DNA of 64,000 bases, taken from NCBI GenBank assembly GCA_026986575.1, contig JALSOH010000004.1, forward strand, positions 352,001 to 416,000. Reading direction: 5' to 3'. The DNA is from Thermoproteota archaeon. Its GTDB lineage: Archaea; Korarchaeota; Korarchaeia; Korarchaeales; Korarchaeaceae. Position 1 is the first letter of the stretch, and the number at the start of each line of letters is the position of its first letter. Below the pieces are notes generated by a model. That model was not told the DNA's origin. It did not search any database and saw only the letters and a program-made list of their open reading frames with translations. This document shows positions 3-32,841 of this stretch, one piece after another. The position numbers and the translations under genes are program-made.

Positions 3-437
3 AGGGTTCAGACGGGGCACGCTGTCCTCATAAGAGAAGATACGATCATTGGGGATGGGACCGTCGTGGGAACCCATGCAGTTGTAGACGGGAGAGTGAT
101 CATCGGGAAGAACGTCAGCATACAGAGCGGAACCTATATACCGCCGGAGAGCAGGATAGGAGATCGCGTGTTCTTGGCCCCATTCGTCGTCATAACGAAC
201 GATAAGTATCCGGCGAGCAAGAGGCTCCTCGGAGTAACTGTAGACAATGATGCCATTATTGGTGCCAATGCGGTGTTAATATCAGGAGTCAGAATAGGTG
301 AGGGCGCTGTTGTGGCTTCAGGTGCTGTCGTCACAAGGGATGTACCCCCAAGGAAGGTCGTTATCGGAGTTCCAGCCAGAGTAGTCATGGACAGAGAGGA
401 GTATGAGAGGAAGAAAAGGGAGTACGAAGAGGGTTAG
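3..437 (+). CDS. Hexapeptide-repeat N-acetyltransferase (WbpD/DapH-like), 5'-truncated by window edge
   Basis: Left-handed beta-helix repeats (IGKNVSI, IGDRVFL, IIGANAVL, IGEGAVV) and TND.YP motif; frame stays open to position 3 (RVQTGHAVLIREDT...). Confidence 0.85.
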   Translation, partial: RVQTGHAVLIREDTIIGDGTVVGTHAVVDGRVIIGKNVSIQSGTYIPPESRIGDRVFLAPFVVITNDKYPASKRLLGVTVDNDAIIGANAVLISGVRIGEGAVVASGAVVTRDVPPRKVVIGVPARVVMDREEYERKKREYEEG

Positions 438-1462
438 ACATCCTCTATGCCTCCCTCAGTTATGACGACTTCAACCGTTCCCTCCGGGAGGTAGGGGCTC
501 TTGACTAGCTTGACCACTCTGCGGTCCTTCTTCCCCCTCTTTATGTAAAGCCTGGCCGTTACGCCGTGGCCTAATACGTGACCACCTGCAGGCCTGTTAG
601 GATCTCCGAAGAAGGCGCTGGGATCCGCCACCACCTGATTTGTGACTATGACCGCCAGATTGTATCCAAGAGCCAGCTTGAGCAGCTTGTGAAGGTACTT
701 GTTGAGCTTCTGCTGCCTCTCGGCGAGAGTCTCCCTGCCCACGTATTCTCCTCTGAAGTGGCTTATCAGGGAGTCCACGATTATCAACCCTATGTTCCTC
801 TCCTTTATGTAAGGCTCTGCCCTCTCTGTTACTATCATCTGGTGATCACTAGTGAATGCCCTCGCATACAGTATGTTCTTCAGAGCCCTTTCCGGATCCA
901 ATCCGAACCTTTCAGCTATCTGTATTATCCTCTCTGGCCTGAATGTTCCCTCCGTATCGATGAATAGGGCTGCTCTTCCCAGACCTCCCTTATCCTCTGG
1001 GAGCTGAACCGTGACCGCCATCTGATGAGCGAACTGTGTCTTTCCCGATCCATAGGGGCCGTATATCTCCGTGATCGACTGGGTCTCAACGCCTCCTCCC
1101 AGTAATTCATCCAATGCCTTGGAACCAGTTGTTATCCTCTGAACCATCTTTCTCTGCTGATAGTAATCGTAAGCTGACATGACATCAATATTCAACTTAG
1201 ATCTTGCGGCCTGTATTATCTTCTGGGCCACACCTTCGCCTATCCCCGCGTACACTGCCAGCTCAGCCGGGGTAGACATGGCTATTGACTCCAACGTGGT
1301 GTAGCCCGCCTCCATGAGCCTCTTAGCAGTGGCGGGGCCGACTCCTTCTAGATCGGTTAGATCGAACTCCTCTTCCACATTTACCTCTTCATAGTAAGTT
1401 TCATCAACCTCCTCAGGCGCTTCCTCCCGAGGTTCCTCCTTGATCACCTTCTTCTTCGGTAT
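434..1462 (-). CDS. radA: DNA repair and recombination protein RadA
   Basis: N-terminal HhH (LEGVGPATAKRL), Walker A GPYGSGKT, IDTEGTFRPER, GGHVLGH. Start is either GTG at 1447 or ATA at 1462 (see findings). Confidence 0.97.
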   Translation of the reverse strand: MPKKKVIKEEPREEAPEEVDETYYEEVNVEEEFDLTDLEGVGPATAKRLMEAGYTTLESIAMSTPAELAVYAGIGEGVAQKIIQAARSKLNIDVMSAYDYYQQRKMVQRITTGSKALDELLGGGVETQSITEIYGPYGSGKTQFAHQMAVTVQLPEDKGGLGRAALFIDTEGTFRPERIIQIAERFGLDPERALKNILYARAFTSDHQMIVTERAEPYIKERNIGLIIVDSLISHFRGEYVGRETLAERQQKLNKYLHKLLKLALGYNLAVIVTNQVVADPSAFFGDPNRPAGGHVLGHGVTARLYIKRGKKDRRVVKLVKSPYLPEGTVEVVITEGGIEDV

Positions 1463-1512
1463 CCCTAATCACCTTCCCCCATAGTTGGGGGATAGGAGGG
1501 GATATTTAACTA

Positions 1513-30081: not shown

Positions 30082-31182
30082 GTGTTTAGACTTCCACTTG
30101 ACGGCCTTCACAGGGAGCTGGGAGCTAAGTTCTTCGAGTTCGCTGGTTGGGAAATGCCAATGAAGTACACGAACTCACTTAAGGAAACACTCTCGGTCAG
30201 AAATTCGGTCGGGATATTTGACACATCTCACATGGGGCGTTTCATACTACGGGGACCTCAAGCAGTTGACTTCCTCCAGAGAGCCACCTCAAACAACATC
30301 AGGATATCCAACGGGAGGACGAGGTACACCCTAACACTCAATCCCGAGGGGGGGATAAAGGACGATAATGTAGCCTTCAAGCTTTCAGACGAACTCGTCC
30401 TATTCATCGCGAATGCATCGAACAGAGAGAAGATACTGAAATGGTTCGAGGAATTAATATCGGAGTGGGGTATGGACGTGGAGTTGAGCGACGAGACCTT
30501 TAGGACCGTGATGATGGCCATCCAAGGACCTAAAGCCAGGGATCTCGTTCACGATGTATTAGGAATGACTTTTGACCTGAGGAAGTTCAGAGTAGAGGAG
30601 AGTACTCACGAGGGAATCAAGTTCATCGTAAGTAGGACGGGTTACACAGGGGAGGATGGCTACGAGATAGTAACATGGGATGTCCACTGGGCTGAATTCA
30701 TCTACAGGGAACTGGTGGACAAGGGAGCCGTACCCTGCGGACTGGTTGCGAGGGATATACTCAGGCTCGAGGCCGGGCTAGTTCTCTACGGGAACGACAT
30801 AGACGAGGAAACGAATCCATTTGAAGCAGGCCTAGATTTTGCCGTGAAACTAGATAAGGAGTTCTTCATAGGTAAAGAAGCCTTGATTAGAATGAAGGAG
30901 GAAGGTGTGAAGAGAAAGAGGGTCGGTCTGCTAAGCGAGACTAGAAACTCCCCAAGAAAGGGGGATAAGATATTCAAGGACGAGGAGGAAGTAGGTGTGG
31001 TCACCAGCGGCACCTTCAGCCCCACATTAGGGAGGGGAATAGGTATGGGATACATCCCACTAGAGTTAGCAAGGGAGGGAGAGGAATTCACTATCAAGGG
31101 AGCGAAGGAGTTCAAGGCGAGAGTTTCTAAAATGCCCTTCTACGACGAAAGTAAATACGGGTGGAGGAGGTCCTCTACCTGA
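30082..31182 (+). CDS. gcvT: Glycine cleavage system T protein
   Basis: FAGWEMP, FDTSHMG, SRTGYTGEDGYE, ARD.LRLEAG. Confidence 0.95.
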   Translation: MFRLPLDGLHRELGAKFFEFAGWEMPMKYTNSLKETLSVRNSVGIFDTSHMGRFILRGPQAVDFLQRATSNNIRISNGRTRYTLTLNPEGGIKDDNVAFKLSDELVLFIANASNREKILKWFEELISEWGMDVELSDETFRTVMMAIQGPKARDLVHDVLGMTFDLRKFRVEESTHEGIKFIVSRTGYTGEDGYEIVTWDVHWAEFIYRELVDKGAVPCGLVARDILRLEAGLVLYGNDIDEETNPFEAGLDFAVKLDKEFFIGKEALIRMKEEGVKRKRVGLLSETRNSPRKGDKIFKDEEEVGVVTSGTFSPTLGRGIGMGYIPLELAREGEEFTIKGAKEFKARVSKMPFYDESKYGWRRSST

Positions 31183-31507
31183 CCTTCCCCAAGACCACAT
31201 GGCTGACGGTCTTCGCAAGCCTTCGAGTCTCGGCGATTTTAACTACATCCCCTTCCTTTATATCGAGACACGGTGGGAGGTGCGCGTGGATCTTACTCCT
31301 CCTCCTCTCATACCTCTTGTATTTCGGCCTGTAATGGAGGTACTCAACAAGCACGGTCACGGTACCCGTCATCTTGGTGCTGATGACCCTCCCCACCAAG
31401 GTCTTCCCCCTGATAGATATGCTCCCGTGCCAAGGGCACTTTTCATCGGAGCATTCCCTCTCAGGAGGGATCACATCTCCGATCAGAGCTTCAGATAGTC
31501 TCCTCAT
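31175..31507 (-). CDS. rps17: 30S ribosomal protein uS17
   Basis: C.D.KCPWHG, KY.RYERRRSKIHAH.P, ETR.LAKT. Confidence 0.95.
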   Translation of the reverse strand: MRRLSEALIGDVIPPERECSDEKCPWHGSISIRGKTLVGRVISTKMTGTVTVLVEYLHYRPKYKRYERRRSKIHAHLPPCLDIKEGDVVKIAETRRLAKTVSHVVLGKVR

Positions 31508-31776
31508 GATCTTTTCACCCTCTCCTCAGGTCTTCCTACTATCTTATCACCTAGGACGATGACTCGTTTACCACTGGGCAACCTAAATAAAAACAACCTC
31601 TCCTCTTTCGGTACCATGACATCACCCTTGGAGGTCCTGATCACAAGCATGTTCTTGGTCTCGTAAATGACCTTCCCCCTGATCCCTAGCTCCGCCAGAT
31701 TGGGTGAGGACAACAGTTTCACCTCCAGACCTATAAGCTCGTGATAAAGGAGATTAGAGGGTTTTATGGGGGCTAT
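31504..31776 (-). CDS. rnp1: RNase P protein subunit Rpp29 (Pop4), predicted AUA start
   Basis: GKVIYETKNML, VPK, G..IVGRPEER; conserved N-terminus NLLYHELIGLEV lies upstream of the first canonical start. Confidence 0.88.
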   Translation of the reverse strand: MAPIKPSNLLYHELIGLEVKLLSSPNLAELGIRGKVIYETKNMLVIRTSKGDVMVPKEERLFLFRLPSGKRVIVLGDKIVGRPEERVKRS

Positions 31777-31982
31777 ATCCTTATACCCCTCTCCCTAAGA
31801 ATGGTTAGGATCCTAGCCTTCTCTCTCCTCAGTTCTCTGTTAAGGTGGATCTTCTCAGCCGCCCCCATTAATCTCTTGGCCTCTAGAAGGAAGAATTCCT
31901 TCTCCACCTCTCTCAACCGCTCTAGGAGCTCCTCATTTGTCATACCTCTTAGCTCCTCAACCTTTCTCGTTGGCAACCTCAC
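31773..31982 (-). CDS. rpl29: 50S ribosomal protein uL29
   Basis: ELR.M..EEL..RL, RELRRE.ARILT. Confidence 0.92.
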   Translation of the reverse strand: MRLPTRKVEELRGMTNEELLERLREVEKEFFLLEAKRLMGAAEKIHLNRELRREKARILTILRERGIRI

Positions 31983-32841
31983 TCACCCCCTCAGCCTCCT
32001 CCGATTCTGATTCGGACTTCGACTCTGAACTCGACTCAGCCGATCCAGATTCCTCAACAACTGAACTTTCTTCTGCCTCCGCTTCAACCAGCTCAACTTC
32101 CTTGACTTCCTCAGATCCCTCGGAAGACTCCAAGGCTTCCGCTAACTCCTCAGGGACTTCTACCTCTACCTCGGTGGTAGACAACTCCTCTCTCTCAGCC
32201 TTCATCCTCTGCCTTATCTCCTCTATAACCTCCTCCCTTATTTTTACCATATCGGGGCTCTCGACGTCGGGCCTCACTATTCTAACTCTAACACCTATCA
32301 CTCCTTGGGGCATAAGCACGTGCTTTACCGCATAGTCGACCTTCTCTATCTGATCTTGCCCGCATCTGTAGATTACCCCGGCCCTAAACCTCTCTTCCCT
32401 AGCTCTCTGACTCCCAAATTTGCCTGCGAGCCTTATTTCCACTCCCTTAGCACCGGCCATCATGACCCTCCTGAGGGCGGAGAAGGCCACCCTCTTGTGC
32501 CTCTCTCCCCTAGCGATTCTCCTAGCTATGTAACTAGCTACGATCCTCGCGCTCAAGAAGGGTTCGTCCACCTTCCTGGCCTGAATATAGGGATTAGAGA
32601 TGCCTAGGGCCTCTTTTACCATTTCTCCTATCCTTTTGGATGCTCTCCCGCCTCTACCAATGATTATTCCGGGACGTTCGACGTAAACCGTAATGATGTC
32701 CCTCACCGGCGTGGAGGAAATGTCCACACCGTGAAAACCAGCCTTCTCAGCTACTTTCTCCATTAACTCATGCAGGGAGTATCTAATAATGCCCTCCTGA
32801 ACGAACTTCTTATAGTTAGGTAGGGTCTTCGTGGCGCTCAT
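31957..32841 (-). CDS. rps3: 30S ribosomal protein uS3 with long acidic C-terminal tail
   Basis: KH domain PGIIIGRGG, GAKGVEI, GVIGVRVRI. Confidence 0.95.
   Translation of the reverse strand: MSATKTLPNYKKFVQEGIIRYSLHELMEKVAEKAGFHGVDISSTPVRDIITVYVERPGIIIGRGGRASKRIGEMVKEALGISNPYIQARKVDEPFLSARIVASYIARRIARGERHKRVAFSALRRVMMAGAKGVEIRLAGKFGSQRAREERFRAGVIYRCGQDQIEKVDYAVKHVLMPQGVIGVRVRIVRPDVESPDMVKIREEVIEEIRQRMKAEREELSTTEVEVEVPEELAEALESSEGSEEVKEVELVEAEAEESSVVEESGSAESSSESKSESESEEAEGVSEVANEKG

Follow-up and report, generated by a model that had tools for sequence, protein, structure and literature searches.

Probable AUA initiation of rpp29 at the overlap with the L29 stop codon in Korarchaeum

How does translation of an archaeal gene begin when the conserved N-terminus of its product is encoded upstream of every canonical start codon that the frame offers? 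The question is raised by rpp29, the gene for RNase P protein component 1, in a Thermoproteota archaeon of the Korarchaeaceae; Candidatus Korarchaeum is the source name attached to close homologues. The DNA analysed is a 64,000-nt stretch (GCA_026986575.1, JALSOH010000004.1, forward strand, 352,001-416,000), referred to here as the window; the genome it comes from is denoted G000, and G012 is a complete genome of the same genus. The locus is encoded entirely by the minus strand and runs S3 (32841..31957), L29, rpp29, S17 (Table 1). From the in-frame TAG that closes it, the rpp29 frame reads GGA GAG GGG TAT AAG GAT ATA GCC CCC ATA AAA CCC TCT AAT CTC and continues CTT TAT CAC GAG CTT ATA GGT CTG GAG up to the GTG at 31722-31720, with no ATG, GTG or TTG between the two ends. 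The mechanically produced list of open reading frames gives solely a 72-residue form beginning at this GTG. A preliminary description of the locus had held that rpp29 has no canonical start and that the first ATA, which overlaps the L29 stop as ATAG and has GAGGGG upstream, is a probable start codon mimicking the usual ATGA coupling. The features it had listed all match the sequence, including the distance of 9 nt between the end of GAGGGG (31791-31786) and the ATA. By itself, such a gap is no rarity. NTG codons make up 23,479 of 306,916 interior codons, and by our own arithmetic the chance of meeting 24 codons without one is about 0.15; the case therefore rests on conservation in relatives.

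Table 1. Coordinates of the rpp29 junction and of further genes with proposed near-cognate starts. Positions refer to the window unless a genome or contig is named.
Feature	Position	Strand	Basis or remark
Ribosomal protein L29	31773..31982	-	ORF; Pfam PF00831, 47.8 bits; stop TAG 31775..31773
In-frame TAG closing the rpp29 frame	31795..31797	-	Sequence; six codons 5' of the ATA
Shine-Dalgarno-like GAGGGGT	31785..31791	-	Comparison with 16S 3' end; within the L29 codons for E-R-G
Proposed AUA start of rpp29	31774..31776	-	Overlaps the L29 stop as ATAG (31776-31773), a 4-nt overlap motif
Proposed rpp29 (RNase P protein component 1)	31504..31776	-	90 codons plus TGA stop 31506..31504
GTG chosen by ORF callers as rpp29 start	31720..31722	-	ORF list
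Ribosomal protein S17	31175..31507	-	ATG 31507..31505 overlaps the rpp29 TGA as canonical ATGA
radA, proposed AUA start 1462..1460	437..1462	-	GGTGA 1473..1469 ends 6 nt upstream
orc1/cdc6, proposed ATA start	G000:C4:541602-542906 (L141)		GGTGA-type Shine-Dalgarno sequence upstream
Polyprenyl synthetase, proposed ATA start	G000:C4:295704-296684 (L142)		GGTGA + 6 nt
NusA-like KH protein, proposed ATT start	G000:C4:48789-49439 (L145)		Shine-Dalgarno sequence 7 nt upstream
Ldh_2 dehydrogenase, proposed CTG start	C9:190784-192046 (L143), G000		GGTGA-type Shine-Dalgarno sequence upstream

Homology places the N-terminus of the protein well upstream of the GTG. The Pfam profile PF01868 matches with 78.5 bits against a cut-off of 27, and its positions 1-84 of 84 cover residues 13-95 of the 96-codon stop-to-stop frame, so that the Rpp29 domain begins 12 codons 5' of GTG 31722. 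The structure of M. jannaschii Rpp29 (6k0a, chain E) aligns with an E-value of 1.3e-19, query residues 4-89 corresponding to chain residues 2-87, and six further PDB sequences are similar to the product. Since residue 2 of that chain falls on residue 4 of the query, the ATA-started Rpp29 would thus be complete and longer than the M. jannaschii protein by two or three residues. Substitution patterns among 19 loci of the genus likewise argue that the segment between ATA and GTG is coding and under strong purifying selection. Over the 16 codons P9..E24 of this segment, pS is 0.82 and pN 0.13 (pN/pS 0.153); the ratio falls to 0.024 for the HELIGLE codons alone and is 0.429 for the 60 codons that follow. 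The full-length domain match is shared with archaeal Rpp29 at large (PF01868; 6k0a chain E, 1v76, 2zae, 1oqk, 1ts9), as are the gene position between L29 and S17 and the N-terminal strand ..N-I/L-x-x-HELIGL. What sets the Korarchaeum genes apart is the lack of a canonical start and the presence of the two or three additional N-terminal residues (IAP).

The ATA-started protein is present in 39 of 41 related genomes and, with the window's own included, in 20 of the 21 genomes of the genus, the sole miss being G001, which is 83% complete. We read the junction in 30 loci, 20 from the genus and 10 from outgroups. Every genus locus places an ATA across the L29 stop, as ATAG in 19 and as ATAA in one (G002), and in 16 of the 20 the open frame contains no ATG, GTG or TTG before the His of HELIG; in the other four (L017, L019, L020 and L021) a GTG stands three codons 3' of the ATA. 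Four loci (L011, L012, L013 and L022) have an in-frame stop one codon 5' of the ATA, so that their start cannot lie farther upstream. Among the outgroups a canonical start precedes HELIG in 10 of 10 loci, and at seven loci this start and the L29 stop together make up an NTGA (ATGA in L024, L025, L026, L028 and L031, GTGA in L030, TTGA in L018); in L023, L027 and L029 the ATG follows the L29 stop with no overlap. The ATA of ATAA in G002 is found exactly nine codons before the His, which is the position of the ATG or GTG in L028, L030 and L031. A near-cognate codon is thus kept throughout the genus at the column where outgroups carry a canonical start (20/20 ATA versus 7/10 NTGA), a conservation that is partly forced, because the ATA takes its last two bases from the start of the L29 stop codon and its first base from the third position of the last L29 codon. 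That part of L29 is itself conserved: the gene ends AGG ATA TAG in the window, and the C-terminus ILTILRERGI[KR][IL]* is kept across 19 genus loci. Its 5' end is ambiguous, with candidate starts at GTG 31982, TTG 31976 and ATG 31943.

Aligning the junction across relatives, as the preliminary description had proposed, therefore bears out its reading of the locus. We consider it likely, on the strength of these comparisons, that rpp29 initiates at AUA 31776-31774, a near-cognate start placed at a stop/start overlap. The AUA overlaps the L29 TAG by two bases and would be the positional equivalent of the ATGA, GTGA or TTGA of related archaea. Ribosomes that finish L29, or small subunits recruited by the GGGGU 8 nt upstream, would start at this codon, with the normal initiator tRNA (CAU anticodon) placed on AUA with a third-position mismatch, so that Met-tRNAi would be the tRNA that reads it. 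The predicted product is a 90-residue Rpp29 that retains the N-terminal strand ..NLLYHELIGLE.. and has the expected N-terminus (M)IAPIKPSNLLYHELIGLEVK.

Two routes to the AUA, termination-reinitiation after L29 and Shine-Dalgarno-led de novo initiation, would fit equally well. Termination-reinitiation is described as the model for NTGA overlaps in a review (PMC12548453). The L29/rpp29 junction has the same 4-nt, same-strand geometry between co-oriented operon neighbours, and outgroups carry NTGA at this very place; it differs in its AUA start and its TAG or TAA stop, which yield ATAG or ATAA in place of the usual NTGA. As to the second route, the 16S rRNA of the window genome ends ..GGATCACCTCC, and among 288 high-confidence starts of G000 GGTGA occurs 58 times, ending 6 nt ahead of the start codon in 26 cases. 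The GGGGT upstream of the rpp29 ATA stands in the same register and forms five pairs with the 16S 3' end, one of them G.U. An in-register match of 4-6 bp to GGAGGTGA (G.U allowed) recurs in every one of the 20 genus loci. The match is weak and falls inside the constrained L29 codons for E-R-G, hence its conservation is no independent evidence.

The junction probably arose from an ancestral ATGA that became ATAA by one G-to-A change and then ATAG. The first step would have been tolerable because the L29 stop was kept while the rpp29 ATG was lost. It is plausible that a weak start codon keeps the yield of Rpp29 below that of the ribosomal proteins encoded in the same operon. S17 has its own GGGTGA 7 nt upstream of its ATG, and need not rely on rpp29 translation for this reason.

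Other explanations of the locus have to be weighed against initiation at the L29 stop. One, which we regard as unlikely, moves the start three codons downstream to the second Ile/Val codon (ATA 31767-31765) and would yield a protein of 87 residues, in which case the overlap constraint would be the sole reason for keeping ATA at the L29 stop. That codon falls on the residue that follows the Met in M. jannaschii Rpp29 (query I4 at chain residue 2), and its column reads GTG in 4 of 19 genus loci, so that a start here would be conceivable above all in those four genomes. Yet the column as a whole (ATA 12, ATC 1, GTC 2, GTG 4) resembles that of an ordinary Ile/Val codon, and GTC is implausible as a start. 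Moreover, the Shine-Dalgarno-like element would be some 17 nt off, and G002 (L022) reads AGG CGA CCG after its ATAA and has no such codon at all.

It is improbable that Rpp29 begins at the first canonical codon (GTG 31722, or a nearby TTG or CTG in relatives) and so lacks the HELIG strand, in which case the N-terminus would be expected at or after (M)KLLSSPNLAELGIR. This is the choice of the ORF callers, and the public predicted Rpp29 proteins of the genus, mostly 69-74 residues long, start there, downstream of HELIG. The constraint on the 16 codons upstream, and above all on HELIGLE, speaks against it, and both the Pfam and the PDB alignments require those codons. At the GTG column, 15 of the 19 genus loci have GTG and 4 have GTA; the Leu codon two places before it reads TTG in just 7 of the 19, and no canonical codon downstream is kept as a start across them; GTG 31722 is probably an internal Val codon. 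One named public entry (82 residues) begins MLYHELIG, a start that in G012 corresponds to an ATA read as Met; that ATA is not the one we propose, and its column is CTC in the window.

We attach very little probability to an L29-Rpp29 fusion produced by programmed frameshifting where L29 ends. The rpp29 frame does run open through the L29 end, and ATATAG in the window genome would allow tRNA-Ile to re-pair at +2 on the second ATA, but the genus conserves no slippery site, the last L29 codon being ATA, TTA or GTA. In L011-L013 and L022 the frame is shut one codon before the ATA, so that only the final codon could shift, and initiation is favoured as the simpler explanation by the stand-alone AUH starts of radA and other genes.

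A sequencing or assembly error for ATG, against which the preliminary description had advised a check, can be dismissed almost outright: 20 species-level genomes agree on ATA, ATGG would also abolish the L29 stop, the assembled Logan contigs of two sequencing runs (both possibly sources of this DNA) are identical over the stretch, and a third run holds a related strain whose contig, about 94% identical (43 differences over 705 bases), is altered at 31768 and 31780, not at 31773-31776, and keeps ATAG. We found no evidence in these contigs or genomes in favour of an ATG-to-ATA error. A screen for indels through split open reading frames returned 81 hits, mostly shadow frames; about four real genes looked frameshifted, so assembly error provides no general explanation either.

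Some features of the surrounding operon may be recorded here. The ribosomal operon ends after S17, the usual L14 and L24 genes being absent downstream, and the S17 3' end shares 8 bases (31175..31182) with a convergent glycine-cleavage T-protein-like gene on the plus strand (30082..31182). The C-terminal tail of S3 (31957..32210, minus strand) comprises about 80 highly acidic residues rich in Ser and Glu. Its length is variable, since a related strain contig has 71 other bases in place of 41 (joint 32004/32046).

The preliminary description had also seen in radA a hint of lineage-wide AUA initiation. The hint itself holds good: the conserved N-terminus of radA lacks a canonical start, and 22 of 22 loci from 21 genomes of the genus read AT[A/C/T] CCN (I-P-K/R-K-K). 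The first codon, ATA in 8, ATC in 11 and ATT in 3 of them, occupies the column that holds ATG in the outgroups (5 of 5 genomes, three of which read M-P-K/R-(x)-K-K). The spacing from GGTGA is exactly 6 nt in 18 of the 22 loci and 5 nt in two, the remaining two having a variant motif; in L123-L125 a stop codon immediately precedes the ATT. Two named public RadA entries begin MPRRKV, with ATC read as Met, and another begins at a downstream GTG. Together with the MLYHELIG entry for Rpp29, these indicate that annotation pipelines have occasionally picked near-cognate codons.

Similar candidate starts occur in further genes of the genus, whose names we have taken from Pfam; like radA, they do not depend on a stop/start overlap and so lend separate support to the AUA reading of rpp29. 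For orc1/cdc6, CGGTGA and 6 nt precede ATA in six and ATT in one of the seven loci of the window's subclade; ACG is found at the same spacing in two other genomes, and the G012 clade has GTG. The polyprenyl synthetase gene reads GGTGA + 6 nt + ATA in 13 of 20 loci. A NusA-like KH protein has ATT in 12 of 20 loci, ATG in 6 and ATA in 2, and 10 of the 12 ATT loci offer no canonical alternative and carry GGAGGTG 7 nt upstream. In the Ldh_2 dehydrogenase gene, GGGTGA + 6 nt + CTG is present in 6 of 6 subclade loci, with ATG (7 loci) or TTG (4) elsewhere.

How far such starts extend was assessed by comparing stop-to-stop open reading frames of G000 and G012 with blastp, which after greedy de-overlapping left 1502 conserved pairs. 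In 200 of these the alignment begins at least five codons before the first NTG in G000, and in 119 it does so in both genomes; on inspection most proved to be overlaps with upstream genes, rRNA shadows or non-coding DNA that is conserved. After filtering, 86 candidates for N-termini that lack an NTG remained, of which just a subset is credible. Behind Shine-Dalgarno-like matches of at least 6 bases, N-termini of G000 are enriched over interiors about 15-fold for ATG, 13-fold for TTG and 6-fold for GTG, and 1.1-fold for ATA (4/515 versus 77/11,224). The corresponding values in G012 are 1.8-fold for ATA and 2.7-fold for ATC, within the range of ordinary codons, and ATG enrichment lies at 15-17 across the two genomes. 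Four-base overlaps with an upstream stop take the form NTGA in 102 cases in G000 and 108 in G012, and ATAG or ATAA in 6 and 10; CTGA (15 and 9) and GTAG mark the background level. AUA is not a general start codon in G000 or G012, because it shows no enrichment linked to Shine-Dalgarno sequences and its ATAG/ATAA overlaps stay at background.

A narrower test gave a different picture in the window's genome. Of the G000 genes with no NTG before a conserved N-terminus, 21 have GGTGA at 6 nt, and a near-cognate codon follows in 11 of them (CTG 4, ATA 3, and one each of ATC, ATT, ACG and AGG). The background, taken from all 6,978 genomic GGTGA sites since GGTGA + 6 carries an in-frame TGA and makes an interior control impossible, is 11.5% (binomial p 5e-6). 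The same test in G012 yields 1 of 12 (p 0.8). Near-cognate starts would thus concern roughly a dozen genes and be stronger in one subclade, as judged by comparison within one genus. Hence the suggestion of lineage-wide AUA initiation stands for a small set of genes, in which AUC, AUU, CUG and ACG also appear, and fails at the scale of the genome.

It is tempting to go further, and we do so tentatively, holding the following for somewhat less than an even chance. The genus, most clearly the subclade of the window, may tolerate or exploit near-cognate starts 6 nt behind GGTGA in a dozen or more genes, which would form a translationally attenuated set with an output possibly tracking the stringency of aIF1 and aIF1A. 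Such a set would span AUA, AUC, AUU, CUG and ACG and would include the core genes for RadA, Orc1/Cdc6, Rpp29 and the NusA-like KH protein.

The factors that would read these codons look ordinary. The aIF1 gene is missing between L29 and rpp29, which distinguishes the Korarchaeum locus from other archaeal rpp29 loci and had been pointed out in the preliminary description as potentially relevant to start-codon choice. The absence at this position is correct; the gene is found elsewhere on the same contig (G000:C4:613691-613903), with an ordinary ATG, 107 aa and a normal SUI1 Pfam score of 65.6 bits, and its placement explains nothing. A tRNA-Met(CAU) detected with ARAGORN at C4:159837-159911 combines an A1:U72 pair with an anticodon stem that has three G:C pairs at its base; we take these features to be the marks of an initiator. 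It is the one clear tRNA-Met(CAU), a second being doubtful, and ARAGORN did not confidently find an elongator tRNA-Met in G000. A tRNA-Ile(UAU) with an intron was reported at G000:C11:23168-23329 at relaxed settings only. Neither aIF1 nor the initiator tRNA has any unusual trait that we could see, or a feature that would account for AUA initiation.

Archaea initiate translation with aIF1 and aIF2 and have no IF3, and we know of no autoregulatory loop for the near-cognate genes of Korarchaeum. If the attenuated set is real, it would be the archaeal counterpart of the IF3 control of infC in bacteria. To our knowledge, the stringency of start-codon choice in archaea has been studied almost solely in vitro and in a few model species. 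The genus would provide a natural series, in which the same genes have ATG in sister genera and AUH, CUG or ACG here, each with a defined Shine-Dalgarno spacing; this would make the roles of Shine-Dalgarno pairing, aIF1 proofreading and stop/start coupling directly testable.

Near-cognate starts on single genes are familiar from bacteria. Those of infC (AUU/AUA), pcnB (AUU), Deinococcus dnaA (ATC) and rpsL (CTG) are described in PMC2830850, the last two starts having been demonstrated by N-terminal proteomics and mass spectrometry. The bacterial genes likewise keep a conserved non-NTG codon where relatives have ATG, and likewise are low-copy or regulatory core genes that automatic callers mis-annotate; the replication initiator dnaA with its ATC parallels orc1/cdc6 with ATA or ATT. 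The Korarchaeum genes differ from these cases in their archaeal host and in that their N-termini are deduced by comparison, as opposed to mass spectrometry for Deinococcus dnaA and rpsL. A literature search, with subscription journals largely outside its reach, found no paper on start codons in Korarchaeum or on conserved AUA starts in archaea. The rpp29 AUA would accordingly be a new archaeal case, supported by comparison, in the known class of near-cognate start codons.

There are practical consequences too. If rpp29 starts at the AUA, most public calls for the genus miss a conserved beta-strand, and those for radA are inconsistent; models and phylogenies built on either carry the error along. 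The rpp29 and radA pattern will matter more if the multi-gene pattern proves to be lineage-specific.

Finally, further candidate genes were noted in single genomes. GGTGA is followed after 6 nt by CTG in the genes for CutA1 and KsgA, by ATC in that for an RDD/SpoIIM membrane protein and by ATT in that for a protein of 95 aa, and an inositol monophosphatase gene has ATA at the column of the ATG in G012; the G000 loci of this set are L146 (C4:335297-335761), L147 (C4:102343-103251), L148 (C4:794203-795780), L144 (C4:633479-633922) and L149 (C6:50563-51516). In the pyrF frame of G012 (stop-to-stop ORF K1|-|1435268-1436051) no NTG occurs for 79 codons, the LILALD motif lies upstream of that point, and an ATA overlaps the TAG of the upstream gene as ATAG, 7 codons before the conserved part. 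The pyrF of G000 (C6:232999-233829, L151) has the conserved GRVPIGNKL.. before its first TTG, and a TAA directly before it closes the frame. In a pyruvate:ferredoxin oxidoreductase gamma-type gene (G000:C4:340082-340831, L150), an in-frame TAG comes four codons after an ATG and precedes the conserved N-terminus, with the first NTG at codon 50, an arrangement that could reflect a near-cognate start, readthrough or an error.
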